A stretch of DNA of 64,000 bases from Candidatus Bathyarchaeota archaeon (GTDB lineage: Archaea > Thermoproteota > Bathyarchaeia > 40CM-2-53-6 > RBG-13-38-9): contig CAWECG010000004.1 in NCBI GenBank assembly GCA_963807605.1, forward strand, positions 32,001 to 96,000, read 5' to 3'. Position numbers and translations under genes: made by a program. The notes beneath the pieces were generated by a model. It made no database searches. It worked only from the letters and a program-made list of their open reading frames with translations, and was not told the origin of the DNA. The stretch's first letter is position 1; each line of letters opens with the position of its first letter. Shown piece after piece: positions 20,019-55,950 of the stretch.

Positions 20019-20876
20019 TTGCCTTCAACACACCCTGAGTTCACGGTAAGGCATTTGTCAGCAACAGCAAAGGCCGAAGTCTATAAGGTCAACGTCGGGG
20101 AGGACCTGGCCTCAGTTGTTGAAGAGGAAGTTGCGGTTGAGGCTCCAGCCAACATCTACCTTAACAAGCAACATCTGGTCACCCTGCTCTCTTCTCCCAC
20201 CATGCTCTGCGAGTTGGCAGTGGGACACTTGTTTTCGGAGGGGATACTCAAAGACAAAGAGACGATCAAGGAAGTCTTGGTTGCCGGGACAGACGTTCAC
20301 GTGAAACTCAAAACTGGGGCCAAAGTTGAACTTGAACGTATCAAGATCGGTAGGGTTGTCACGACAGCGTGTGGTTCACTCGTCGATTATCTGGCATTGC
20401 TCGCACAGATCAAGACAAAGATCTCAGCACAATATTCAGTCTCCACAAGTGACATAGAGAGAATGATCACTGAGCTCAACAATAGCTCTAGAGTCTTCAG
20501 GGCTACGGGTGGGATCCATTCTGCAGCCATATTCAAGGGCACGACGATGGTTGCTTTCGCTGAAGATGTTGGACGCCACAATGCTGTGGATAAGGTTGTA
20601 GGAGCCTCTGTTCTAAAAGGTGTGAATTTTGGTACGTCCGTCCTTGTTACCTCTGGAAGGCAGACGGCGGATATAGTCGCAAAGGCGGCTCAGATGGGGA
20701 TACCGTTTTCGATATCCATCTCTGGGCCGATCCACTCCGGGATAAAGCTCGCTGAGAAGGTTGGTATAACCCTCATCTGCTTCGCGCGAGGAAGAAGATT
20801 CAACATCTATACCTCACCAGAGAGGGTGAGATTGCCCAACGGTGCACCGATCAAGACCAAGCCCCAATCTTCTTAG
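20019..20876 (+). CDS. fdhD: Formate dehydrogenase accessory sulfurtransferase
   Basis: TGGIHSAA, EDVGRHNAVDK, TSGR. Confidence 0.92.
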   Translation: MPSTHPEFTVRHLSATAKAEVYKVNVGEDLASVVEEEVAVEAPANIYLNKQHLVTLLSSPTMLCELAVGHLFSEGILKDKETIKEVLVAGTDVHVKLKTGAKVELERIKIGRVVTTACGSLVDYLALLAQIKTKISAQYSVSTSDIERMITELNNSSRVFRATGGIHSAAIFKGTTMVAFAEDVGRHNAVDKVVGASVLKGVNFGTSVLVTSGRQTADIVAKAAQMGIPFSISISGPIHSGIKLAEKVGITLICFARGRRFNIYTSPERVRLPNGAPIKTKPQSS

Positions 20877-20907
20877 GTTTTCGATAGGCGAGCACGTTCA
20901 AATCTTT

Positions 20908-21540
20908 CTAAAGAAACTCCTTCATCTCAGTAATTCGTGAGATGAAGGAGACTCCTTCGGCCTTTATGGCGTCGATCTGAAACGGATTATTCGCAACAGC
21001 TATCACGTTGATGCCCGCTTTCCTGGCAGCCGTCACGTCGTATATGGAATCGCCAACGATGAGACAGTCATTAGGTTCAACGCCTAACCGCTCAGATGCG
21101 AGGATGAATATCTCAGGGTTTGGTTTGGCCTCTTCAACGTCATCTGCTGAGAGGATAATGTCGAAGTATCCTTCAAGGCTGAATTCCTTGAGAACTCTTA
21201 ATACGCTTAGCTTATCGGCTGAGGTTGCCAAACATAATTTGAGCCCTTTCAGTCTCAAATATCTAAGGGTCTCCTCAACGCCCTCAAAAACTCTGACAGC
21301 GCGTGTTGTCTGAATGAAAGCAATCCTCTTCTCTTTCACTATTTCGTCAATGTGTCTGTGCTCTGTCTCGGGTAAGATCTCTGTAAGTATCTGTTTTGCA
21401 GGCTTACCGAAGCGTCGGTATATTTCAGTATCCTCTACGCTCAGTCCAAACTTGGATAATGCTCTTCGGAAAGATTCTAGGTGAGCCCGATAACTGTCCA
21501 CTAGAGTTCCGTCAAAGTCGAAGATTACTGCTAAAACCAG
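20908..21540 (-). CDS. HAD-family phosphatase, apparently CTG-initiated
   Basis: Motif I VIFDFDGTL lies upstream of the called GTG; KPNP and VGDS..D motifs; in-frame TAA two codons before the CTG. Confidence 0.85.
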   Translation of the reverse strand: MVLAVIFDFDGTLVDSYRAHLESFRRALSKFGLSVEDTEIYRRFGKPAKQILTEILPETEHRHIDEIVKEKRIAFIQTTRAVRVFEGVEETLRYLRLKGLKLCLATSADKLSVLRVLKEFSLEGYFDIILSADDVEEAKPNPEIFILASERLGVEPNDCLIVGDSIYDVTAARKAGINVIAVANNPFQIDAIKAEGVSFISRITEMKEFL

Positions 21541-21768
21541 TTCTTATCCCGGCACTTCGGTGACGGCCGTATCCATAAGCATCTGGTTAGGAGCAGCCAA
21601 TATCCAAAAGGACGGCCTAGACGGATTTTGATTGCTCTTCGAGCTTCCGGGCGCAGGATCTGCAACAAAAAGAGTGTTCTTTTCCATCTACGGTCTTCTT
21701 GTAGGTTGCGAGCTCGCAGGCCTCTCCCTCAATCAGAGCATTACAGAAATGGCACTTTTCACTCGAAG

Positions 21769-22146
21769 TCATTTTTGTTGCCCTCTCTTCTTGAGGTAAT
21801 CGTTTATCGCTGCGTGAAGGGCATCAGCCGCCAAGTTCGAACAATGCATCTTTATCGGTGGAAGCCCACCGAGATTGTCCGCGACATCTGATCGGGTAAT
21901 CTTCAGAGCTTCATCTAAGGTCTTACCTCTTGCAAGTTCCGTTGTCATGCTGCTTGTGGCTATAGCTGCACCGCAGCCAAAGGTCTTGAACTTCAAATCA
22001 ACTATTCTGTCATCCTTGACCTTGATGTAGATGGTCATTAGGTCACCGCATACGGGATTTCCTACGGTCCCCACGCCGTCGGCGTCTGGAATCTCGCCTA
22101 CGTTTCTTGGATTTCTGAAGTGTTCGATGACTTTCTCGCTGTACAT
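21769..22146 (-). CDS. iscU: Fe-S cluster scaffold
   Basis: NPRNVG, GNPVCGD, FGCGAAIA, KMHC. Confidence 0.95.
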   Translation of the reverse strand: MYSEKVIEHFRNPRNVGEIPDADGVGTVGNPVCGDLMTIYIKVKDDRIVDLKFKTFGCGAAIATSSMTTELARGKTLDEALKITRSDVADNLGGLPPIKMHCSNLAADALHAAINDYLKKRGQQK

Positions 22147-22334
22147 TAGTCCTTCACTTACGATCTTATTCTCTTGAGCTCACGAGTCCGTGAATAGTCT
22201 CTGCCTCGCTATGCTCATCGCGTTCTATTCAATCTCACGTAAAGGATCGTATAAGCTCTCTTATGGACTTTCGTGACGGTACTTCTTTCTTATCGGTAGG
22301 AAACTCCGGCACAGTTACTTGCGTTCGTCTGAGT

Positions 22335-22571
22335 CTATTTATTCTTCTTCATGAATACGTGGATCTCTTTACCTTTCTTTTGGATCGCGAGTACCTCTTG
22401 GCCTGTGCTTCTTGCTAGGCTTTGAAGGTCTGATTCCGCCGCGGGGTCGTCCGCAACGATCTCAAGCGTTTGCCCCACCGCGATCTTTTCCAACTCGACC
22501 TTAGTCTTGAGGACCGGTACCGGGCAGTACAAGCCCAAATAATTGAGTTGCTTATCAGCCTTTAGTGACAA
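22335..22571 (-). CDS. tusA: TusA-family sulfur carrier
   Basis: GLYCPVP, ADDPAAESDL. Confidence 0.9.
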   Translation of the reverse strand: MSLKADKQLNYLGLYCPVPVLKTKVELEKIAVGQTLEIVADDPAAESDLQSLARSTGQEVLAIQKKGKEIHVFMKKNK

Positions 22572-22695
22572 GTCTTACCATCAATCACTTCTAACCTCAT
22601 ACTAAGTTCTAAACTTTGCTTATCCCAGACATCTGCGAGAATGATCCAAAAAGCGTTTTTAGTTCACATTGAAGATCCTCCTTAAGGTGCAGCTA

Positions 22696-23175
22696 ATGGA
22701 ACACCTATGGGCTCCCTGGAGGAGGACTTACTTTGAACAGCCAAAAAGTGACGAATGCATCTTTTGTCTAATGTGCAAGAAGCAAAACGATCCCGTTGAC
22801 TACGTCCTTTATAGGGGAGAGGCTGTGCTCATCAGCCTGAACCGATTCCCCTACAACGTCGGCCACACAATGATCATCCCGTACAGGCACCTAGAGAATG
22901 TCGAAGAACTCAGCAGTAAGGAGTCTGCAGAGATCTTTCAACTATTAAAACTCTGCATCTCTATGCTGAAAATCGTCCTGAAGCCGACCGGATTCAACAT
23001 TGGGGTAAACATCGGGAAGGCTGCGGGGGCTGGCGAGCAGCACCTTCATTTTCACATCGTTCCAAGATGGGTTGGCGATACAAACTTCATGCCTATTCTC
23101 ACAGACACAAAAGTCCTCTCAGAGAGCTTGGACAAAGTATGGCGTGAACTCTCGCAAGAGATCAAGAAGCGTTGA
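22696..23175 (+). CDS. HIT-family hydrolase
   Basis: LWAPWR, CIFC, NRFPYNVGH, HLHFHIVPRW. Confidence 0.93.
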   Translation: MEHLWAPWRRTYFEQPKSDECIFCLMCKKQNDPVDYVLYRGEAVLISLNRFPYNVGHTMIIPYRHLENVEELSSKESAEIFQLLKLCISMLKIVLKPTGFNIGVNIGKAAGAGEQHLHFHIVPRWVGDTNFMPILTDTKVLSESLDKVWRELSQEIKKR

Positions 23176-23370
23176 CCGTTGAACCTAAGTCACGTGGGGT
23201 ATTGCTGACCATTATGCAGCGAAAAATGTCTCATCTTCGTATTGGGCTGAGGTTGAACACCAAGACTCACCAGCGGGCAGATCCCGACCAGGCACTCCCC
23301 CTGCAAGATCCCTGGCGTTGTCGTCAAAATCACCGAAAATGCTAAAACTACATAACAAAAAAAGACCCTC

Positions 23371-23802
23371 ATGGCAAAGAAACCGACACATAGACTCAAA
23401 ATAAGAGTCAGAGCCGGTGATACCGACTATACGGGGCTCGCTTTCAACGCTCGAATAGTGGAATGGTTCAGCACTGGAAGAATTGAGCTTCTCCGGTCGA
23501 GAAAGATCACATATTTGAACGACGCACGTCTTGCCGTCGAAGGGAAACCGCAGAAAGTCTCCTTAGTCGTCGGTGAGGTCTACGCCAGATTTCACGCCCC
23601 TGTCAGATTCGATGAACTTGTCGAACTCAAGGTAAGCATCATTGAGGTGAGGGATAAGACGGTTAAGTTCGATTACATTGTCAAAAGCGTTCCAGACAAG
23701 AGGCTCCTTGCAACGGGCAACAGTACATCTGTCTGCGTAGATCGAGGAACAATCAGATCAGCCAAGATTCCCCCAAGAATGGCCGAACTGCTTAATGCCT
23801 AG
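23371..23802 (+). CDS. Acyl-CoA thioesterase (hotdog, YbgC-like)
   Basis: RVRAGDTD..G..FN...W...GR. Confidence 0.8.
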   Translation: MAKKPTHRLKIRVRAGDTDYTGLAFNARIVEWFSTGRIELLRSRKITYLNDARLAVEGKPQKVSLVVGEVYARFHAPVRFDELVELKVSIIEVRDKTVKFDYIVKSVPDKRLLATGNSTSVCVDRGTIRSAKIPPRMAELLNA

Positions 23803-24044: not shown

Positions 24045-24518
24045 TTGGCCGAAGTTGCGAAACAAAAGATCCTAGTGTTTGACAAACGTGTCTGCACTGG
24101 CTGTAGACTCTGTGAACTTGCATGCTCCTTCGCGAAGTTCAATAACACATACAGCTACCAGAAGACACACATCCGACATGTTATAGAGTTTGATCGAGGC
24201 GAGATCGAGTGCCAGTACTGTCAGCACTGTGAGGAACCATTATGCATGGCATCCTGCCCAGCCAAAGCCATACACAAAGACGAGAATACTGGCATAGTGA
24301 AAATCAACCACTTGGAATGCATCGGTTGCCAAACGTGCAATATAGTATGTCCGGCACGCATACCAAAATTCTATGCTGAAAAAAAGATATCGATGAAATG
24401 CGACCTCTGCGATGGCGATCCAGCCTGCGTCAAATACTGTTCACCTATGGCGATAAGTCTCGTGACAAGAGAGGAAGCGGACAACTTACTAAAACAGATC
24501 TATGGCGGGAGAAAGTGA
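24045..24518 (+). CDS. Poly-4Fe-4S electron-transfer protein (CooF/HycB-like)
   Basis: CTGCRLCELAC, CQHCEEPLCMASCP, CIGCQTCNIVCP, KCDLC.GDPACVKYC. Confidence 0.9.
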   Translation: MAEVAKQKILVFDKRVCTGCRLCELACSFAKFNNTYSYQKTHIRHVIEFDRGEIECQYCQHCEEPLCMASCPAKAIHKDENTGIVKINHLECIGCQTCNIVCPARIPKFYAEKKISMKCDLCDGDPACVKYCSPMAISLVTREEADNLLKQIYGGRK

Positions 24519-24648
24519 ACTCCTTGATAGACGGATCAAAATCACGCAAGGGGTATCGTTCCAGAAATCCGGCACATGAGATAATATTTGACCGCGGTTC
24601 TCTTCTACAGAGTTGCTTAGCATACTGACTCTCGAGGTGCTGCTGAAG

Positions 24649-25312
24649 TTGGCTCAAGAAAAAGAAGTGCTCCAAAGTTTACGGAAAGAGTTGGCAACTA
24701 ATTTCATCGCAGAATCGAGAATGTCCACAGACAGGCCAGTAGCCATAATCAACAAAGAAGCTCTACTTCAAGCTCTCAGGATATTGGTGGAGAAATACGA
24801 TTCGAGATTGTGCACGATAACCGCCATAGATAACGGACTAGACTTCGAACTAATCTATCACATGAGCATAAAAGGGCTAGTAATCAATGTAAAGACCACA
24901 GTCCCCAAAGAAGAGTCAGAAATAGTCTCCATCACAAAGATCATCCCCGGCGCAGCCACGGCTGAAAGGGAGATATGCGACCTCTTCAAGATTAACTTCA
25001 AAGAACTCGCCGATTCACGAGCACTCATAGTCCCATACGAGTGGCGAGACACCAAGGTTCCCCTGAGAAAGCCAATGGGCGGGATAGTCACAGAGTACCA
25101 GAAACCGACAGTTGAGACCCTCATGCAGCAGGGCCAAGTCTTCACCATGCCTTCCAGTGTCAAAGCTCACAGACAAAACCTGAAACTTCCAGGAGATCCA
25201 GACGACCATGGCCAGACCCGAAGCCCTCAAGGAACTCCACGAGATAGCTGAGGAAGTCAAGTTCGACAAGAGAGTAGGCTACGACTGGTTGAGGAAGAAG
25301 TTGAGGTACTGA
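24649..25312 (+). CDS. NuoC/EchD-like subunit with HdrC-like C-terminal tail (one extra base near 25192)
   Basis: TITAID..FELIYH, SIT..IPGA..AEREICDLF..PLRK; corrected tail ..LPEIQTTMARPEALKELHEIAEEVKFDKRVGYDW..; SD GAGGTG. Confidence 0.78.
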
Positions 25313-25315
25313 TCC

Positions 25316-26206
25316 TTGGAGTCCAAGAAGGAATACTCCATGTTCTGGGGTTGCTGGGTCCCCTCAAGACAGCCAAGCATAGAGGCTGCCTGCAAATCAG
25401 TCTTGAGCAGATTCAAAATTGGAATCAGAGATATGGAAGGGGTCTCGTGTTGCCCCGACCCCGTCGTCACCGAGAGACTTCAACGCGAGATGTGGTTAGC
25501 CTTGGCCGCAAGAAACCTCTCGATAGCCGAAAAGTCTGGAACGGCTCTAGCTACAATCTGCAATGGATGCTATGAAACCTTCTTCGAAGCAATAGAGACA
25601 ATGAAAACCGATGAAGGTCTGCGAGGAAAGGTAGAGAATGCCCTTGACAGAATAGGAACGACCCTGCCTCAAAAAACAGAGCTCAGACACATAATCGAGA
25701 TCCTAGGCCAAGACATCGGAGTCGAAGAGATCGCAAAGCTAAGCTCAAAAAGGCTTAGGAAATTGAATGTTGCCGTACATCCTGGCTGTCATCTGTACAG
25801 ATCTCACAGCCGGGAGGAAGTTCAACACAAACCAGAGATGTTTGAGCAGATCGTCGCAGCAACAGGAGCAAACCTCGTAGACTATGGAATAAAGAGGTTC
25901 TGCTGTGGATACCCCCACCGAGTGGTTGAGGAAGAGTTCTCCCTGAAGATGATGCTTGCCAGAAAACTCCAAAGAGTCTGGGACGCAGATGCAGACTGCG
26001 TCGTGGTATCCTGTCCAGCATGCAATATACAATTTGAGTTTGGACAGCTTGAACTTAAACGAAAATATAACATAGCCTTCGGCTCAGGGATCCCCGTAAT
26101 CCACATAGTCGAACTCGTTGCCCTGGGTCTGGGCATTAAACCCGAAGAAATCGGACTTCAGACACACAGAGGCCCAACTTCAAACATTACCTCAAAGTTG
26201 GAGTAG
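25316..26206 (+). CDS. hdrB: Heterodisulfide reductase subunit B-like (two CCG domains)
   Basis: FWGC, SCCP, AARNL, TICNGC, HPGCH, FCCG, SCPAC..QFE. Confidence 0.9.
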   Translation: MESKKEYSMFWGCWVPSRQPSIEAACKSVLSRFKIGIRDMEGVSCCPDPVVTERLQREMWLALAARNLSIAEKSGTALATICNGCYETFFEAIETMKTDEGLRGKVENALDRIGTTLPQKTELRHIIEILGQDIGVEEIAKLSSKRLRKLNVAVHPGCHLYRSHSREEVQHKPEMFEQIVAATGANLVDYGIKRFCCGYPHRVVEEEFSLKMMLARKLQRVWDADADCVVVSCPACNIQFEFGQLELKRKYNIAFGSGIPVIHIVELVALGLGIKPEEIGLQTHRGPTSNITSKLE

Positions 26207-26213
26207 GTTAAAT

Positions 26214-27367
26214 ATGTCATTCATTCTTCCAATAGGCCCCTTCCATCTGGCACTCAAAGAGGCAGCATATTTCAAACTTGAAGTTGAGGGCGAAAGATAG
26301 TCGGCGGAGACTTCAAATTCGGATACATGCACAGAGGAATCGAGGATCTTGCGACAAAGAAATCCTACCACCACAACATCTTCCTAGCAGAGAGAGTCTG
26401 CGGAATCTGCAACACCGTCCATTCTACGTGTTACACTCAAACAGTTGAGGCCCTGATGAACATCGAACCTCCAGAACGGGCCAAGTACATCAGAACAATC
26501 GTCTTCGAAACAGAAAGGCTTCAGAGTCATCTGCTCTGGTTCGGAGTAGGAATGCACGAGATCGGCTACGACACTGCCTACATGTACATGTGGCGAGAAC
26601 GAGAAAATGCTGTGGAAATACTAGAGGCTGTTTGTGGAAAGAGGGTGAACCTTGGGATAAACACGATAGGCGGGGTTAGAAGAGATATCACACCTGACAA
26701 AGAGGGCTTGATAAAGACAAAACTAGATCTCATTGAAAGGGCAGTCAATAAGATTGGCAAATTCCTCATTGAAGATAGAGTCTTGAAAGCACGAGTCAAA
26801 GATGTCGGGGTGCTCACAAAGGATGAGGCCAAGAAACTGTGCGTCGTTGGCCCAACGGCGAGGGGCTCAGGAATCGATATGGACACAAGAAGAGATGACC
26901 CATATGCTGCCTACCCTTATATTGACTTCAACGTTCCAGTGGAAGAGAACGGCGATGTGCTCTCGCGAACATTGGTCAGACTTTCAGAACTCTTCCAATC
27001 GATAAGGATCATCAGGCAAGCCTTGAGAGACCTTCCCAAAGGCCCAGTATCGGTGAAGGAACTTCCATTTCCTAGAATCAACGACGCATTTGGGAGAGTC
27101 GAAGCTCACCGTGGGGAACTTCTATACTACATCCGGTCAAACGGCACGAATTATCCTGAAAGAGTAAAGATACGCACGCCTTCAGTAGTGAACAATAATT
27201 CAATTTTGCCCATGGCTCTTGGCGAGACGATTGCTGATTTTCCAATAATATTGGCGAGTATCGACCCCTGCTTCTCTTGCACAGACAGGGTAACCATAGT
27301 CGACACCAAGAAGAATGTGAGCAAGACTGTTGCTCTATCCAGCCTCGGCAGGAGTGGAAATCAATGA
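26214..27367 (+). CDS. Group 4 [NiFe]-hydrogenase large subunit (one A missing near 26295)
   Basis: GPFH.ALKE...GYMHRGIE; L1 ERVCGICNTVH; L2 DPCFSCTDR plus C-terminal extension. Confidence 0.9.
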
Positions 27368-28278
27368 CCTCAGTCCTTGAGATCTTAATTGGCGTCTTCG
27401 TCTACCCAGGACTAATATTCTCCCTCGCCATCGGTGGAATGTTCTATTGGCTCTACCGGAAGATTCGGGCAAGATTACAGGCCAGACGAGGGCCACCATG
27501 GTACCAGTTCTTCATCGATCTAATCAAGCTCTTTTCAAAAGAATCCATAATCCCCTCCTCAGGGAGAGGCCTCCTAGTAGTGCTAGCACCCATAATTGCA
27601 ATCATCGGCCTCCTCTTCACTATCGTGATGTTGCCTCTGGGTTCAGCTCCCTTAGTGCAATTTGACGAAAGCCTGATAGTAGCACTTTACTTCCTTGCGT
27701 TCCCAGGATTGGCGATGATTATGGCCGGAGTCAGCTCAGGCTCACCTTATGGCACTGTCGGGTCAAGTCGTGAGGCTCGCATGATGATAGCCTACGAACT
27801 CCCCTTCGTCCTTTCCGCATTGACATTGGGTTTCTATCTGAAATCACTTAGCATCGCATCGATAACGCAGTACCAATTGGATCATGGGATGTTTGTATTC
27901 AAGTATCCACTGTCAACAATCGCCTTCATTCTCTGTCTACTTCCTAAGATCAGTCGGCGTCCCTTCGACGCTCCAGAGGCAGACACCGAGATAATCGCAG
28001 GACCATTAACAGAGTATTCAGGGGCGCTACTAGGTCTATTTGAAATAGTCAACGGCGTCAGGTGGTTTGTCCTTCCAGCTTTCGCTGTCACACTCTTCCT
28101 AGGGGGAGGAGCGAATATCATTGAATTCTTATTGAAATGCCTAGGCCTAGTCCTAATAATATCATTTATCGATGTAATTTATCCACGCTTCAGGGTCAAT
28201 CAAGGATTTGGATTCTTCTTAAAATGGGTTCTCCTGCTTGCTCTGATAGATTTCATAAGGAGTCTAATCCTGCCATGA
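27364..28278 (+). CDS. NuoH/EchB-like membrane subunit
   Basis: RKIRARLQARRGPP..Q.F.D.IKL.SKE, PFDAPEADTEI.AG..TEYSG. Confidence 0.92.
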   Translation: MTSVLEILIGVFVYPGLIFSLAIGGMFYWLYRKIRARLQARRGPPWYQFFIDLIKLFSKESIIPSSGRGLLVVLAPIIAIIGLLFTIVMLPLGSAPLVQFDESLIVALYFLAFPGLAMIMAGVSSGSPYGTVGSSREARMMIAYELPFVLSALTLGFYLKSLSIASITQYQLDHGMFVFKYPLSTIAFILCLLPKISRRPFDAPEADTEIIAGPLTEYSGALLGLFEIVNGVRWFVLPAFAVTLFLGGGANIIEFLLKCLGLVLIISFIDVIYPRFRVNQGFGFFLKWVLLLALIDFIRSLILP

Positions 28279-28820
28279 AGAGACACATAATCTCAGATGC
28301 TCTCCGAAGTCTAGTAAACCCATCTACAACAAAATATCCCAAGAAATCTTACACCCCTCCAGATGGCTACAGGGGCGCGGCTGAGTATGATTCGGAAAAA
28401 TGTGTGGGTTGCGCAGCCTGCTCCCAAGAGTGCCCACCTGAGGCCATCACATATAGTGATGGAGAAAAGACACGCAACATCAAGCTAAGCTATGGCCTCT
28501 GTTCATTTTGCGGTCGTTGTGAGGAGATCTGTCCATGGGACGCAGTCCACCTTACAAAGAAATTTGAACTAGCAGTCTTCAACCGAAAAGAGGCTGAAAC
28601 AGGGGTCGAGGTACCTTTCTTTGAGTGCACTGAATGCGGAAGGCCCTTCTTTCCTTCCCCGCAAATGAAAGCCTCGATCGAGAAAGTTAGAGAGACTCTA
28701 GAAAAGTATAAGATTAGAAAGGACGAGCTGGCCGGCCTAATCTCCATCTGTCCAACTTGCTCATTTGCTGTTGACAAAATGCCTGAGAGGCGAATGTTTC
28801 TGAGGAGACTTGTGGGGTGA
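28275..28820 (+). CDS. NuoI/EchF-like 4Fe-4S subunit
   Basis: T.KYP...GYRG, CVGCAACSQECP, CSFCGRCEEICP, extra CTECG..CPTC. Confidence 0.9.
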   Translation: MKRHIISDALRSLVNPSTTKYPKKSYTPPDGYRGAAEYDSEKCVGCAACSQECPPEAITYSDGEKTRNIKLSYGLCSFCGRCEEICPWDAVHLTKKFELAVFNRKEAETGVEVPFFECTECGRPFFPSPQMKASIEKVRETLEKYKIRKDELAGLISICPTCSFAVDKMPERRMFLRRLVG

Positions 28821-28824
28821 CTTG

Positions 28825-29505
28825 ATGACGGAGGGTCTGCGATCATTTGCTAGAAGAAAATCCCCCTGGGTTATGCATGTCCCATGCGGAGGATGCAATG
28901 GGTGCGACATAGAGATTGTTGCCTCACTCACACCAAAATATGATGTTGAGAGATTCGGAGTACTTCAGAAAGGCAGTCCACGACACGCCGACGTGCTACT
29001 CGTCACAGGTATAGTAACTGCCCAAGTGAAAGATAGGCTTAAGAGACTATATGATTTGACGCCAGGTCCCAAGCATGTTGTGGCGTTTGGCTCCTGCGCC
29101 TTAGATGGAGATATTTTCCGCCCCGGATATGGATTTGCAGGGCCCCTAGACGAGGTCCTACCGGTCAGCATCTACGTCCCAGGATGTCCACCACGACCTG
29201 AAGCCCTGATCGATGGCCTTAGCAAGTTACTAAGGCCGGCGCCTCGCAAAAAGAGAATTGTAACTGAAGTCTTCACCGGCGGAGAAACTGAGAGACCGTC
29301 AGCTGAACCGACGGATATGGGTGTCACGACCAAACGTGGTACCCGGAAGGGCTTCAACGAACAATTAGCCGAATTCATCTTATTCACAGGGCTCACACTT
29401 GCAGCACTAGGATTGTACTACGAAGGCTTCAATATTCTAGTTGTCGCAGCAATATTTCTGATGGGGCCTATTGTGAAGCTGCTGTCGAGTATTTTCAGGA
29501 GATGA
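28825..29505 (+). CDS. NuoB/EchC-like hydrogenase small subunit with C-terminal TM hairpin
   Basis: CGGCNGCDIE, SPRHAD, GSC, VPGCPPRPE; two hydrophobic helices at the end. Confidence 0.92.
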   Translation: MTEGLRSFARRKSPWVMHVPCGGCNGCDIEIVASLTPKYDVERFGVLQKGSPRHADVLLVTGIVTAQVKDRLKRLYDLTPGPKHVVAFGSCALDGDIFRPGYGFAGPLDEVLPVSIYVPGCPPRPEALIDGLSKLLRPAPRKKRIVTEVFTGGETERPSAEPTDMGVTTKRGTRKGFNEQLAEFILFTGLTLAALGLYYEGFNILVVAAIFLMGPIVKLLSSIFRR

Positions 29506-29708: not shown

Positions 29709-29966
29709 ATGGGACTGTTCAAGAGACGAGATGAAAACGACGTATTCGCAGGAGGGGAAGAGGCGCCTCCTTTAGATAAACGAAGACGTCATATGCGTGC
29801 ACGCGTCTTCATGGCAGTCACGCTCGTTTTGATAACCTTAATCGACTGGTATGTAACCTCCTCCGTGCTATCCAGCAATACTCCATTTACATTTTGGCTT
29901 CTTTCTATTCTGCTGACAATACACATAGGCTGGATCCTGGTAGCCATCGCAATCCTTGCCCCATAA
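29709..29966 (+). CDS. Small membrane protein (2 TM)
   Basis: ATG ORF with two hydrophobic segments. Confidence 0.55.
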   Translation: MGLFKRRDENDVFAGGEEAPPLDKRRRHMRARVFMAVTLVLITLIDWYVTSSVLSSNTPFTFWLLSILLTIHIGWILVAIAILAP

Positions 29967-30181
29967 TTCAGGAATGTAGAATGCGATTTGGAAAAACGAC
30001 TATGCACAAGCCAATTACTAGCACGAAACTAGGTACAGCCAAAACATCTGATCATTGATTGGTAATTGAATGCAAACAGCTTTCTGGGAAGTTGTGGCTA
30101 GTCCCATTGCCCTCGGGCTAACGACAAGTCTTTTAGATTGAAGTCAGGAATTAGCGTAGAGATATCCTAGAGCTGAACATA

Positions 30182-30475
30182 ATGGATTGGATTTCTATCT
30201 CTGAGGTTTTTGGAGCATTTTTCGCACTCGCCTCAATTATTCTTTCCCTGTGGATAATGGCCAGAGTGAAGCGTGGGGCCTCCGCATGGATATACCTCGG
30301 CATAACTTCATTTTGCATGTTCTTCGCTATGATTCTAGGTATTGCTGGAATGCTATTCCCCGTCAACCAAGATATCCAGCGTCTTGAACAATACATGTTC
30401 CTCTTGGCTGGTGCCTTGTCATTTGCCATTAGTGGAATCAAGCTCCAAGAGACGTTTACGTACAAGGAGCTTTAG
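30182..30475 (+). CDS. Small membrane protein (3 TM)
   Basis: Three hydrophobic helices; RG.SAW.YLG. Confidence 0.6.
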   Translation: MDWISISEVFGAFFALASIILSLWIMARVKRGASAWIYLGITSFCMFFAMILGIAGMLFPVNQDIQRLEQYMFLLAGALSFAISGIKLQETFTYKEL

Positions 30476-30486
30476 AGGGAAGTCAC

Positions 30487-30762
30487 TTGAGTCCAATTGA
30501 GCCGCTTATCGACGCCGTGGTAGCTGCATGTTTTCTTTTCGGAGCAGTCTTCTACTTGATGGTAGCTTACGGTGAAAGGCGGGGCATGGCATGGAGATTC
30601 CTAGGAACTGCAGGCGCAATCTGGTTCGTAATACTCTTCCTAAAATTGATCAATAATATGGCCGAGTTTCCTTGGGTTTATGGAACGGTCCGAGCCGCGG
30701 TTGCACTGACTCTGGGAGTCTACCTTCTTGGAATAATCATCTTGGCAAGGAGTTTACAGTAG
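30487..30762 (+). CDS. Small membrane protein (3 TM), possible paralog of the preceding gene
   Basis: Three hydrophobic helices; RRGMAWRFLG; SD GAGGGA. Confidence 0.6.
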   Translation: MSPIEPLIDAVVAACFLFGAVFYLMVAYGERRGMAWRFLGTAGAIWFVILFLKLINNMAEFPWVYGTVRAAVALTLGVYLLGIIILARSLQ

Positions 30763-54223: not shown

Positions 54224-55172
54224 CTCCTAACTAACTGGAATTCAACGCGGCTGGTGATTGTAGCGTGCCCAAGCAACTCCACGATCGCTTCACGTCTTCT
54301 TGCTGAGTGCAAATGCAAAGAATGCCAAGTAGGCCAATCCTATTGCCAGATAGCCGTACGCTTCTGGCCATCGAACAACTGTTCCATGCTTGACGTATAC
54401 GTCCAGGAGGGCACCCATCGGTATGAATATCGGCCACTGATTCAAGACACTCCTCGTCGTTCTGAAGACAGCCGCGTAGACTATCCCTACAACAAACAGA
54501 GTCATGATATTCTCGGGTGTCGCCCATCCTGGATAGCCGATGTGATAGAGTGAGTACATCGCAGATGCGATCAATATGCCAGGTATGATTCCGAAGGCCC
54601 TGTTAAACCTCAGTTGAAGGAATCCTCGGAAGAAGACGGCTTCAAAGAATCCGCTCACAAGGACAAGCATCAACAATGGCGGGAGTATACCCAGATCCCC
54701 CAGCCTTGATACACCTGCGCCGATAAGCGGGGGCATCACGAACACTATTGTTGCCACCAGTCCAATAAGGATGCTAAGCTTCCATCTCTGCTTGGTTATT
54801 CCAATCTCTCGAAAGGCTTCTCTCCTCAAGAATCTGATGTAACCTACCGGGATGAGAACCCCAGCAAAGAATAGGAGACCAACATCGTAGAATATGATGG
54901 CATCAATCATTGACGCTCGGGCGAAAGCAAGATAATTGAAAAGGACGACGAGAGCCCACGCCCCAATCGCGACTAGCAAACTCTTGTCAGGCGAATATCT
55001 GACCGCCAGAACCTGCTTGCATTTCATGCTTCGTTGGTCGATTTGAGGCTGGTGAAAAGGTTTACGATAGGATCGATCCTTCGTGAACTCTAAAAAGCAA
55101 AGCGTCGTCGATTGTTCATAGGTGGCTCGTCGAGAAGTCACAACGGTCCAGACTCGCCTTGCAAAAGACGGA
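54224..55172 (+). repeat. ~950-bp direct repeat, copy B
   Basis: Colinear with 36478-37426. Confidence 0.95.
54290..55027 (-). CDS. CPBP intramembrane protease, copy B
   Basis: Near-identical to copy A. Confidence 0.85.
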   Translation of the reverse strand: MKCKQVLAVRYSPDKSLLVAIGAWALVVLFNYLAFARASMIDAIIFYDVGLLFFAGVLIPVGYIRFLRREAFREIGITKQRWKLSILIGLVATIVFVMPPLIGAGVSRLGDLGILPPLLMLVLVSGFFEAVFFRGFLQLRFNRAFGIIPGILIASAMYSLYHIGYPGWATPENIMTLFVVGIVYAAVFRTTRSVLNQWPIFIPMGALLDVYVKHGTVVRWPEAYGYLAIGLAYLAFFAFALSKKT

Positions 55173-55369
55173 CAGACTTCCACGATCCCCACCAAAGAGC
55201 CAAATTACCTATATCCCCCTCACCAGCTTGGGCGCACACACAACGATGTACGAATAAGGGCCTGGAGCGATGGATAAGGAATCTCCCAGCGGCCTCCCCA
55301 TCTGTCTCAAGTTGCGGTGAAATGTTATTAGCCACCCGTAAGAGTGGTGTTGGGGGTCGGTTTTCGGCA

Positions 55370-55950
55370 ATGTCCGAGAAGTCCAGAATTAGGACCTTCT
55401 CAGATTATGTGTTCGGACTTGTAGTGGTCTTCAGCAGCTTCTCACTGACTAACAGCGTCATTCAGGCGCCAGTCGATCTTGTCAGTAGTATAGCGTTGTT
55501 TACTTTGAGTTTTGCGATCTTGATCACAGTGTGGCTCATATATGACGGCCTGATGGCCAAACTTCGTGTGGAAACCAGCACGGCCCTGGCTCTAAACATC
55601 ATATTATTGTTTCTCGCGGTGTTGGAGCCTTTCCTGTTGAACATCGTTTTTTGAACCCTAGGGTCTCCGATTTCGCGTCTACTTGCTATGCCATTGATAT
55701 GGGTGGTCTGCTTGGAATATGTGCTCTGCTAGCTCATATGCTTGCAATAGACAGCCGCAACGCGCTTTCGGTGGAGGTGTCAAAGACTCTCAGGTCCGAG
55801 AGGAATCTGTTCGCGATTGTTGCTGCGATTTTCGTTGTGTCGACCGCGCCTTTGCTAGTGACCTTCACGTTTTTGGGTTGGACATTGCGAGCATGGCTAT
55901 GGGTGGCGATGTTGTTCGTGTACCCCATCAGAAGAGCGACTTCACGATAA
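55370..55950 (+). CDS. TMEM175-family potassium channel, frameshift in T6 run near 55650
   Basis: SRIRTFSD (RxxxFSD) signature; TM helices continue in ORF 55651-55950. Confidence 0.72.

Follow-up and report, generated by a model that had tools for sequence, protein, structure and literature searches.

A candidate Ehd-like [NiFe]-hydrogenase of Bathyarchaeia with an HdrC-like arm on its NuoC-type subunit

Membrane hydrogenases linked to HdrB have been proposed to couple the oxidation of H2 directly to the reduction of disulfides in methanogenic and non-methanogenic archaea. These proposals were made from genomes; to our knowledge, none of the enzymes has been purified. Here we analyse a gene cluster of this kind in a stretch of 64,000 nucleotides, hereafter the window, from the genome of a Candidatus Bathyarchaeota archaeon (contig CAWECG010000004.1, positions 32,001 to 96,000). 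Bathyarchaeial hosts are abundant in sediments, soils and wetlands.

The 'HdrB-interacting' group 4 hydrogenases were reviewed by Kohtz et al. 2022 (PMC9723716). They include Ehd of Methanomethylicia, a combination of a hydrogenase, HdrBC and an ion antiporter, the name of which is credited in that review to Borrel et al. 2019; Ehe in Culexarchaeia; Ehg in Nezhaarchaeia; and an 'Ehd-like' clade containing sequences from Bathyarchaeia (Fig. 4I of the review). Supplementary File 5 of the same paper gives Ehd as nine consecutive genes: EhdA, B, C, 'EhdD / hdrC', 'EhdE / hdrB', 'EhdF / [NiFe]', G, H and I. The 'disulfide-reducing hydrogenase' Drh of Methanocellales (Lyu & Lu 2015, as cited in PMC9723716) was, according to that citation, proposed to reduce disulfides with H2 without ion pumping. 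Finally, Asgard group 4l/4q [NiFe]-hydrogenases have been modelled with a peripheral heterodisulfide reductase domain, according to the searchable text of a preprint (Appler et al., 10.1101/2024.07.04.601786).

The cluster in the window consists of seven closely packed genes on the plus strand (positions 24045-29505), encoding a ferredoxin, NuoC, HdrB, the large subunit, NuoH, NuoI and NuoB. The order and the family assignments are those of the original prediction, which had been made from the DNA letters without database searches, and they are supported by the open reading frames (ORFs) and Pfam. The cluster belongs to the group 4 [NiFe]-hydrogenases, having both Ni-binding cysteine pairs (RVCGIC and DPCFSC, both anticipated) together with subunits of the NuoB, NuoI, NuoC and NuoH types. 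In Pfam and profile scans the cluster yielded neither hdrA nor a free hdrC nor an antiporter gene, as had also been predicted. We consider it probable, at roughly 0.7, that this is an 'Ehd-like' HdrB-associated group 4 [NiFe]-hydrogenase in which an arm on the NuoC-type subunit docks HdrB, electrons pass from H2 to a disulfide, and ions, given no antiporter, are pumped little or not at all.

The NuoC-type subunit (24613..25191; PF00329, E 4e-21) starts at TTG 24613 or GTG 24637 and includes the first ~37 residues of the arm. After ...KLP at 25191 the residues are out of frame, and the next frame reads EIQTTMARPEAL...GYDWLRKKLRY up to TGA at 25310-25312, four bases before hdrB. Because that frame runs to a stop just before hdrB, the correction proposed earlier, removal of one base near 25192 so that NuoC is extended, is exact. 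In every homolog ...KLPEIQTTMARPEAL...GYDWLRKKLRY lies uninterrupted within one frame, and in three metagenome runs a single G stands where the window has GG (25192..25193). When the G at 25192 is dropped, NuoC is joined to an arm of ~78 residues, the second half of which (EIQTTMARPEAL...KKLRY, 25193..25312) was identified by translation and by its profile match to HdrC; the continuation after the break is identical in P0001 and P0002.

A profile made from the arm only (A2; 29 arms, 79 columns) matched HdrC chains and nothing else in the PDB, always at the C-terminus: residues 109-183 of 185 in 8rvu_c (E 1.8e-14), residues 107-182 of 184 in 5odc_C (E 3.9e-11), and the C-terminal stretches of 8rvv_C (E 1.9e-14), 9sfi_E (E 1.2e-10) and 7bkb_C (E 1.6e-3). 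The profile of the full-length NuoC+arm protein produced the same HdrC matches. The likeness to the end of HdrC, to which the original prediction had pointed, is thus substantiated. So is the lack of the Fe-S domain: the match begins at HdrC residue 107-109, the NuoC+arm protein has no Fer4 match and no CxxCxxC motif, and the HdrC ferredoxin domain has no counterpart. Judged by these profiles, the arm corresponds by homology to the C-terminal part of HdrC that clasps HdrB, minus the ferredoxin domain. Compared with HdrC of the solved complexes (5ODC, 8RVU, 9SFI, 7BKB), to which the last ~75 residues are homologous (E 1.8e-14 to 1.6e-3), the ferredoxin domain with two [4Fe-4S] clusters is gone and a NuoC domain stands in its place; the arm also occurs with neither HdrA nor a flavin-based bifurcation module.

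When NuoC+arm was folded alone, the pLDDT (predicted local distance difference test) values were 74-93 in the NuoC domain and 31-62 in the arm. Co-folding of the arm with HdrB scored 0.82 in three runs against 0.00 for the best control, with 112-117 contacts and a partner pLDDT of 84-85; the mark is reached by 58 of 80 solved complexes and by 2 of 110 mismatched pairs. Since HdrBC is among the solved structures, the score speaks for a likeness to the HdrBC interface and not for binding by this copy. The model predicts that the arm wraps HdrB. It is very improbable that the arm is a leftover of a fusion with no role in docking, HdrB merely sharing the operon: clades sharing just 30-40% identity retain the arm in frame, positions G3, E14, R33, R77 and Y78 are invariant in A2, and the arm occurs also as a separate protein of ~90 residues beside hdrB in a paralogous cluster. 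A tether that holds HdrB to the hydrogenase, as proposed originally for an H2:disulfide enzyme whose substrate was left unnamed, seems the best reading. The most likely attachment of HdrB would be a NuoC-type subunit with the clasping arm of HdrC, the Fe-S wire being supplied by other subunits. The NuoC+arm/HdrB pair offers a concrete construct for co-expression and cryo-electron microscopy.

Like Ehd, the cluster in the window has the ferredoxin, NuoC+arm, HdrB, large subunit, NuoH, NuoI and NuoB in the core order, and hdrB lies inside the hydrogenase operon behind the gene listed as hdrC. A Methanomethylicia locus (L048) consists of nine genes: ferredoxin, antiporter (704 residues), antiporter fragment, NuoC+arm, HdrB, large subunit, NuoH, NuoI and NuoB. 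This matches the EhdA-I order exactly, and thus the published Ehd 'hdrC' is, by position, the NuoC+arm gene. The large subunit of the window is 55-58% identical to those of Methanomethylicia and Nezhaarchaeales, and its HdrB groups with theirs (support 100/99); the placement near Ehd comes from this HdrB tree and the large-subunit identity. Unlike Ehd, the window has no antiporter-like subunit (EhdB/C), which is part of the stated Ehd core; its NuoB bears a hydrophobic tail, three small proteins of hydrophobic character follow, and two frame breaks are present; and no McrA was found in its host, so that the methanogenic heterodisulfide, to judge by the genome, is not the substrate. Two other genes accompany the Ehd clusters. 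A class-I pyridine-nucleotide disulfide oxidoreductase (dimerisation domain) lies ahead of them in L048 (3494-4834) and in the Nezhaarchaeales locus L050 (2893-4275), and a HycI-type maturation protease lies behind them (L048:13094-13642 and L050:12116-12604).

It follows that the fusion cannot be claimed as a novelty, as the original prediction had hoped, since the fused gene occupies the 'EhdD / hdrC' position in Methanomethylicia and Nezhaarchaeales clusters with the published Ehd order. Nor can the minimal architecture, as the antiporter-less Drh and the Bathyarchaeial 'Ehd-like' clade are in print (PMC9723716). The kind of enzyme, its presence in Bathyarchaeia and the antiporter-less form have all been published, and the fused gene is the published Ehd 'hdrC'. 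The explicit attachment device, its three architectures and the derived antiporter-less variant remain new. We found no description in the literature of a NuoC-HdrC fusion, or of a NuoC chimera without Fe-S clusters; EhdD is known to us through Kohtz et al. 2022 only.

Other described systems are more distant. As far as its cited gene list goes, Drh resembles the cluster in the window: the hydrogenase is of the group 4 type, its operon includes hdrB, and an antiporter is missing. The list also has a very small ORF beside hdrB; the host is a methanogen of another phylum, and the likeness is one of gene lists only. The Asgard 4l/4q enzymes, so far as the preprint text can be searched, are likewise membrane-bound group 4 hydrogenases with an attached Hdr module. 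However, they are Mbh-like, have antiporter subunits and belong to a different phylum; HdrB, HdrC and an arm are not named in the searchable text (10.1101/2024.07.04.601786). Among solved structures, formate hydrogenlyase (HycB-G, 7Z0S) and Mbh (6CFW) come closest to the large subunit, to the NuoC domain and to the ferredoxin of HycB type. In formate hydrogenlyase the HycB wire links the hydrogenase to a partner enzyme plugged onto the peripheral arm. In the window, by contrast, the partner is HdrB and not formate dehydrogenase, it is attached through the NuoC extension, and the membrane arm is reduced.

The fused gene is widespread. A search with the NuoC part retrieved 37 proteins, mostly annotated as Bathyarchaeia, of which the full-length ones have 218-234 residues and the best is 95% identical. 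Orthologs ending at the NuoC domain, which would have spoken against the arm, were not seen: the arm is present at the C-terminus in all 12 homologs read, and all 37 homologs of 119-234 residues that reach the end bear it. Full-length matches to the NuoC+arm profile were found in about 31 of 200 sampled genomes of class Bathyarchaeia. In 29 loci of relatives the arm lies in frame behind the NuoC domain, one of them (L033) having no separate tblastn match for it. The synteny survey that had been suggested showed NuoC+arm followed by hdrB, and then by the large subunit, in 28 of these 29 loci, which are all those extending past the arm (28/28). The ferredoxin is encoded upstream in 26 of the 29, directly upstream of NuoC in 25. 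Among genomes serving as species representatives, the same fused gene turned up in a metagenome-assembled genome (MAG) of Methanomethylicia and in one of Nezhaarchaeales, at 41-42% identity. Three Bathyarchaeial loci (L045, L046, L049) have the large subunit followed directly by NuoI, without NuoH, and in L045 a second hydrogenase cluster (NuoB, NuoI, large subunit) adjoins convergently.

In a representative library of 1.84 billion proteins, clustered at 50% identity, the arm was observed in 106 cluster representatives: 17 times on NuoC, 34 times on a ferredoxin domain as in canonical HdrC, and about 50 times in short proteins of ~70-115 residues, some of which may be fragments. The genome under study contains both a NuoC-fused and a free-standing arm, each beside its own hdrB in its own group 4 hydrogenase cluster. 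The chances are about equal for and against the Fe-S-less HdrC arm being a portable adaptor through which HdrB can be connected to various modules for electron input. If it is, the published Ehd-type 'hdrC' is mis-described, and a search with the arm would list every HdrB-coupled enzyme, even those with no recognisable HdrC.

The free-standing arm belongs to a second HdrB-linked group 4 hydrogenase, which is intact and lies outside the window (G000:C4:420000-429400; L056:4058-14402). This cluster begins with a ferredoxin, a free arm of 92 residues, HdrB, an unknown protein of 115 residues and an antiporter, and continues with a NuoCD fusion having the [NiFe] site, NuoH, NuoI, NuoB and an ORF of 144 residues; a GlcD-type FAD (flavin adenine dinucleotide) oxidase/flavoprotein and a CCG protein of 384 residues are encoded further on. 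Its HdrB is 35% identical to that of the window. The arm profile finds two copies only in the genome, the broken one in the window and the free 92-residue protein at C4:420.6 kb (hhalign probability 98.3%, E 2.5e-14). The 115-residue ORF behind the second hdrB was considered as an arm and rejected.

Contrary to the initial view of an operon intact but for one indel, the large-subunit gene has a second break, at 26293-26295. From the ATG at 26214 it reads through 27 codons (26214..26296) before TAG at 26298, and the remainder (26297..27367) is in another frame. The A-run at 26293-26295 is one A short, an extra A standing behind 26292 in four of four metagenome runs; at 25192 the runs X1, X4 and X6 have one base fewer, the fourth having no coverage there. 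The comparison contigs come from soil, wetland and marsh, are 95-99% alike to the stretch, and do not include the source sample. The DNA runs that best cover the stretch share about a third of its sequence words, and no RNA run was listed as containing it. Against the window, one contig of 2.1 kb shows 84 substitutions and, as its only gaps, these two. As contigs so similar have both genes intact, both breaks are private to this assembly. A programmed frameshift was rejected, since the genes of relatives are uninterrupted in frame. DNA of the same-genus genome G087, being 64-88% identical and fragmented, is unfit for indel counts.

The two breaks are thus either consensus errors or very recent inactivation, and the balance is near even, leaning slightly to error. 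The operon may be a recently inactivated pseudogene cluster with real breaks, its job being done by the antiporter-bearing HdrB-hydrogenase at C4:420-428 kb; we take this as a serious contender, though one that falls somewhat short of an even chance. Two independent breaks sit within 1.1 kb of a single operon, whereas five aminoacyl-tRNA synthetase genes (~12 kb) and the paralogous nine-gene cluster (7 kb) are unbroken; elsewhere in the window, five pairs of ORFs on the same strand that had looked suspicious proved to be separate genes and were rejected as split ones by Pfam (0/5); and the second cluster is intact and has its own free-standing arm. However, both break sites are short homopolymers, and apart from the breaks the proteins of the operon are 91-92% identical to those of a same-genus relative and show no further damage. 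Besides, a similar break in the same gene of a few-contig MAG (L049/L020) resembles long-read consensus errors. In that case (L049:7977-8454, the same locus as L020, genome G063) the NuoC+arm gene is also split over two frames, and the contigs have Flye-style names, which hints that, in assemblies of that kind, a consensus error can produce breaks like these. In another part of the window (55094-55947) two same-strand frames overlap, the first being a weak TMEM175 match (24.5 bits against the Pfam cut-off of 25 bits); this may be another split gene.

No antiporter-like (NuoL/MrpD-type) subunit is encoded in or near the hydrogenase cluster. The search for unlinked antiporter modules, proposed along with one for mcr and coenzyme M genes, did detect antiporter-type genes: whereas the cluster is at C4:56-61.5 kb, the PF00361 genes of the genome are found only at C4:257-262 kb and C4:422 kb, the former in an 11-subunit complex 200 kb away and the latter in the second hydrogenase. 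The nearest match in the genome to the Ehd antiporter is 37-40% identical and part of another complex, and so is not a close ortholog. An antiporter gene lies upstream of NuoC in L048, L050, L017 and L018. In the HdrB tree the group of the window (support 100/100) is nested in a clade supported at 100/99, in which these same four loci form the earlier branches; there is also a second large clade of Bathyarchaeia without an antiporter gene. This suggests that the lineage of the window lost the antiporter and derives from an antiporter-bearing Ehd. By such a loss, an enzyme that conserved energy would have become a simple disulfide reductase driven by H2. In the family-level relatives L040 (12820-16559) and L047 (6769-10098), two antiporter-like genes on the reverse strand lie directly downstream of nuoB in convergent orientation, and one of them shares 47-51% identity with the antiporter in the Ehd cluster of L048.

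We infer as follows how HdrB docks, which way the electrons take, in what direction the reaction runs and what kind of substrate is used. H2 would be oxidised at the large subunit, and the electrons would flow from the [NiFe] site to the NuoB cluster, the two NuoI clusters, probably the four-cluster ferredoxin, and HdrB, where a disulfide would be reduced at the two non-cubane clusters. HdrB would be fixed to the hydrogenase through the ~78-residue arm at the C-terminus of NuoC. The enzyme is probably attached to the membrane and pumps few ions or none, because there is no antiporter while NuoH is kept, NuoB has a hydrophobic tail and three hydrophobic proteins follow. Homology, synteny and the co-fold together make reduction of a disulfide with H2 the best supported reading.

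In the genome, which is 94% complete, no McrA or ComA homologs were found, and thus the substrate is not obviously CoM-S-S-CoB. The target of HdrB might rather be sulfur bound to a protein, or a disulfide within one, with a carrier resembling TusA/DsrC or of the lipoyl type; sulfur-oxidising sHdr systems and the proposed GcvH-linked Ehe would be parallels. Besides the lack of McrA and ComA, this agrees with the TusA and IscU genes found upstream, in divergent orientation, both in the window and in relatives at the family level, with the GcvH in the Ehe cluster of Culexarchaeia (PMC9723716), and with the pyridine-nucleotide disulfide oxidoreductase that precedes the Methanomethylicia and Nezhaarchaeales clusters. 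Nevertheless we regard it as rather unlikely: the HdrB family matches methanogen HdrB end to end (5odc_B, residues 2-291, E 2e-96), the operon has no gene for a carrier, and the TusA/IscU synteny is limited to close kin, so that it may mirror relatedness and not function.

The physiological partner could also be ferredoxin and not H2, which would make this a ferredoxin:disulfide or ferredoxin:H+ enzyme, the four-cluster subunit being the entry port and HdrB a second, regulatory or confurcating outlet; this we find improbable. By ORFs and Pfam, the cluster encodes neither a flavin module nor a bifurcation module of the HdrA type, and the reduction of a disulfide with H2 is strongly downhill by the established redox potentials, making a third partner unneeded. 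What can be said for ferredoxin is that electrons usually enter or leave group 4 enzymes through a subunit of HycB type, and that the related group 4g enzymes are thought to be ferredoxin-coupled (PMC7886697).

Several points weigh against the H2-driven, arm-docked disulfide reductase that we prefer. In canonical HdrC, residues of the ferredoxin domain (Y81 and others) contribute to the surroundings of the HdrB active site (PMC13518236), and these residues are missing here. The co-fold may owe its pass to the model's memory of the solved HdrBC structures. The HdrB tree is rooted at its midpoint only. Given two breaks in this operon as against unbroken synthetase genes and an unbroken paralogous cluster, the NuoC-arm/hydrogenase copy of this organism may be dead. 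Finally, enzymes of this type are known from genomes alone.

Individual subunits have the following features. The first gene (24045..24518) encodes a four-cluster ferredoxin of the type of HycB and the Fe-S subunit of aldehyde oxidoreductase (Pfam Fer4_11), in the position of EhdA; its top matches in the PDB are 8c0z_C, 9mqx_E and HycB of 7z0s_B. HdrB (25316..26206) has two CCG domains (PF02754 in two stretches), and its ten cluster cysteines, C13, C45, C46, C82, C85, C158, C196, C197, C233 and C236, are invariant. In the large subunit (PF00346, PF00374) the nickel-binding motifs are L1 RVCGICNTVH and L2 DPCFSCTDR, and the closest solved chains are HycE (7z0s_E) and MbhL (6cfw_L). The NuoH-type membrane subunit (27364..28278; PF00146, E 2e-68) has several hydrophobic spans by hydropathy. 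The NuoI-type subunit with 2x[4Fe-4S] (28275..28820; Fer4 families) ends in a CxxC...CxxC extension (CTEC ... CPTC, at 28650-28800); this may form a site like a zinc ribbon or bind an additional metal.

The NuoB-type small subunit (28810..29505; PF01058) has a C-terminal hydrophobic extension (about residues 197-231, encoded at 29400-29505), seen otherwise only in L041 and L043. The same two loci keep, at 55-75% identity, the three small hydrophobic proteins of 85, 97 and 91 residues encoded downstream on the plus strand (29709..30762), which have no Pfam family and are possibly extra membrane parts of the complex. Together with the NuoB tail they may form a replacement membrane anchor. The relatives with antiporter-like genes nearby have neither the tail nor the three proteins.

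Upstream of the cluster (20019-23802) there are genes for FdhD, a HAD hydrolase, IscU/NifU_N and TusA (both on the minus strand), a HIT protein and a 4HBT thioesterase. The position of TusA and IscU is kept in the family-level relatives L040, L042 and L043. In L040 (3958-5427) the IscU homolog is matched in two parts on one strand, residues 33-118 and, at a distance of about 1.1 kb, residues 1-33, which suggests that this gene is interrupted by an insertion or an intervening element.

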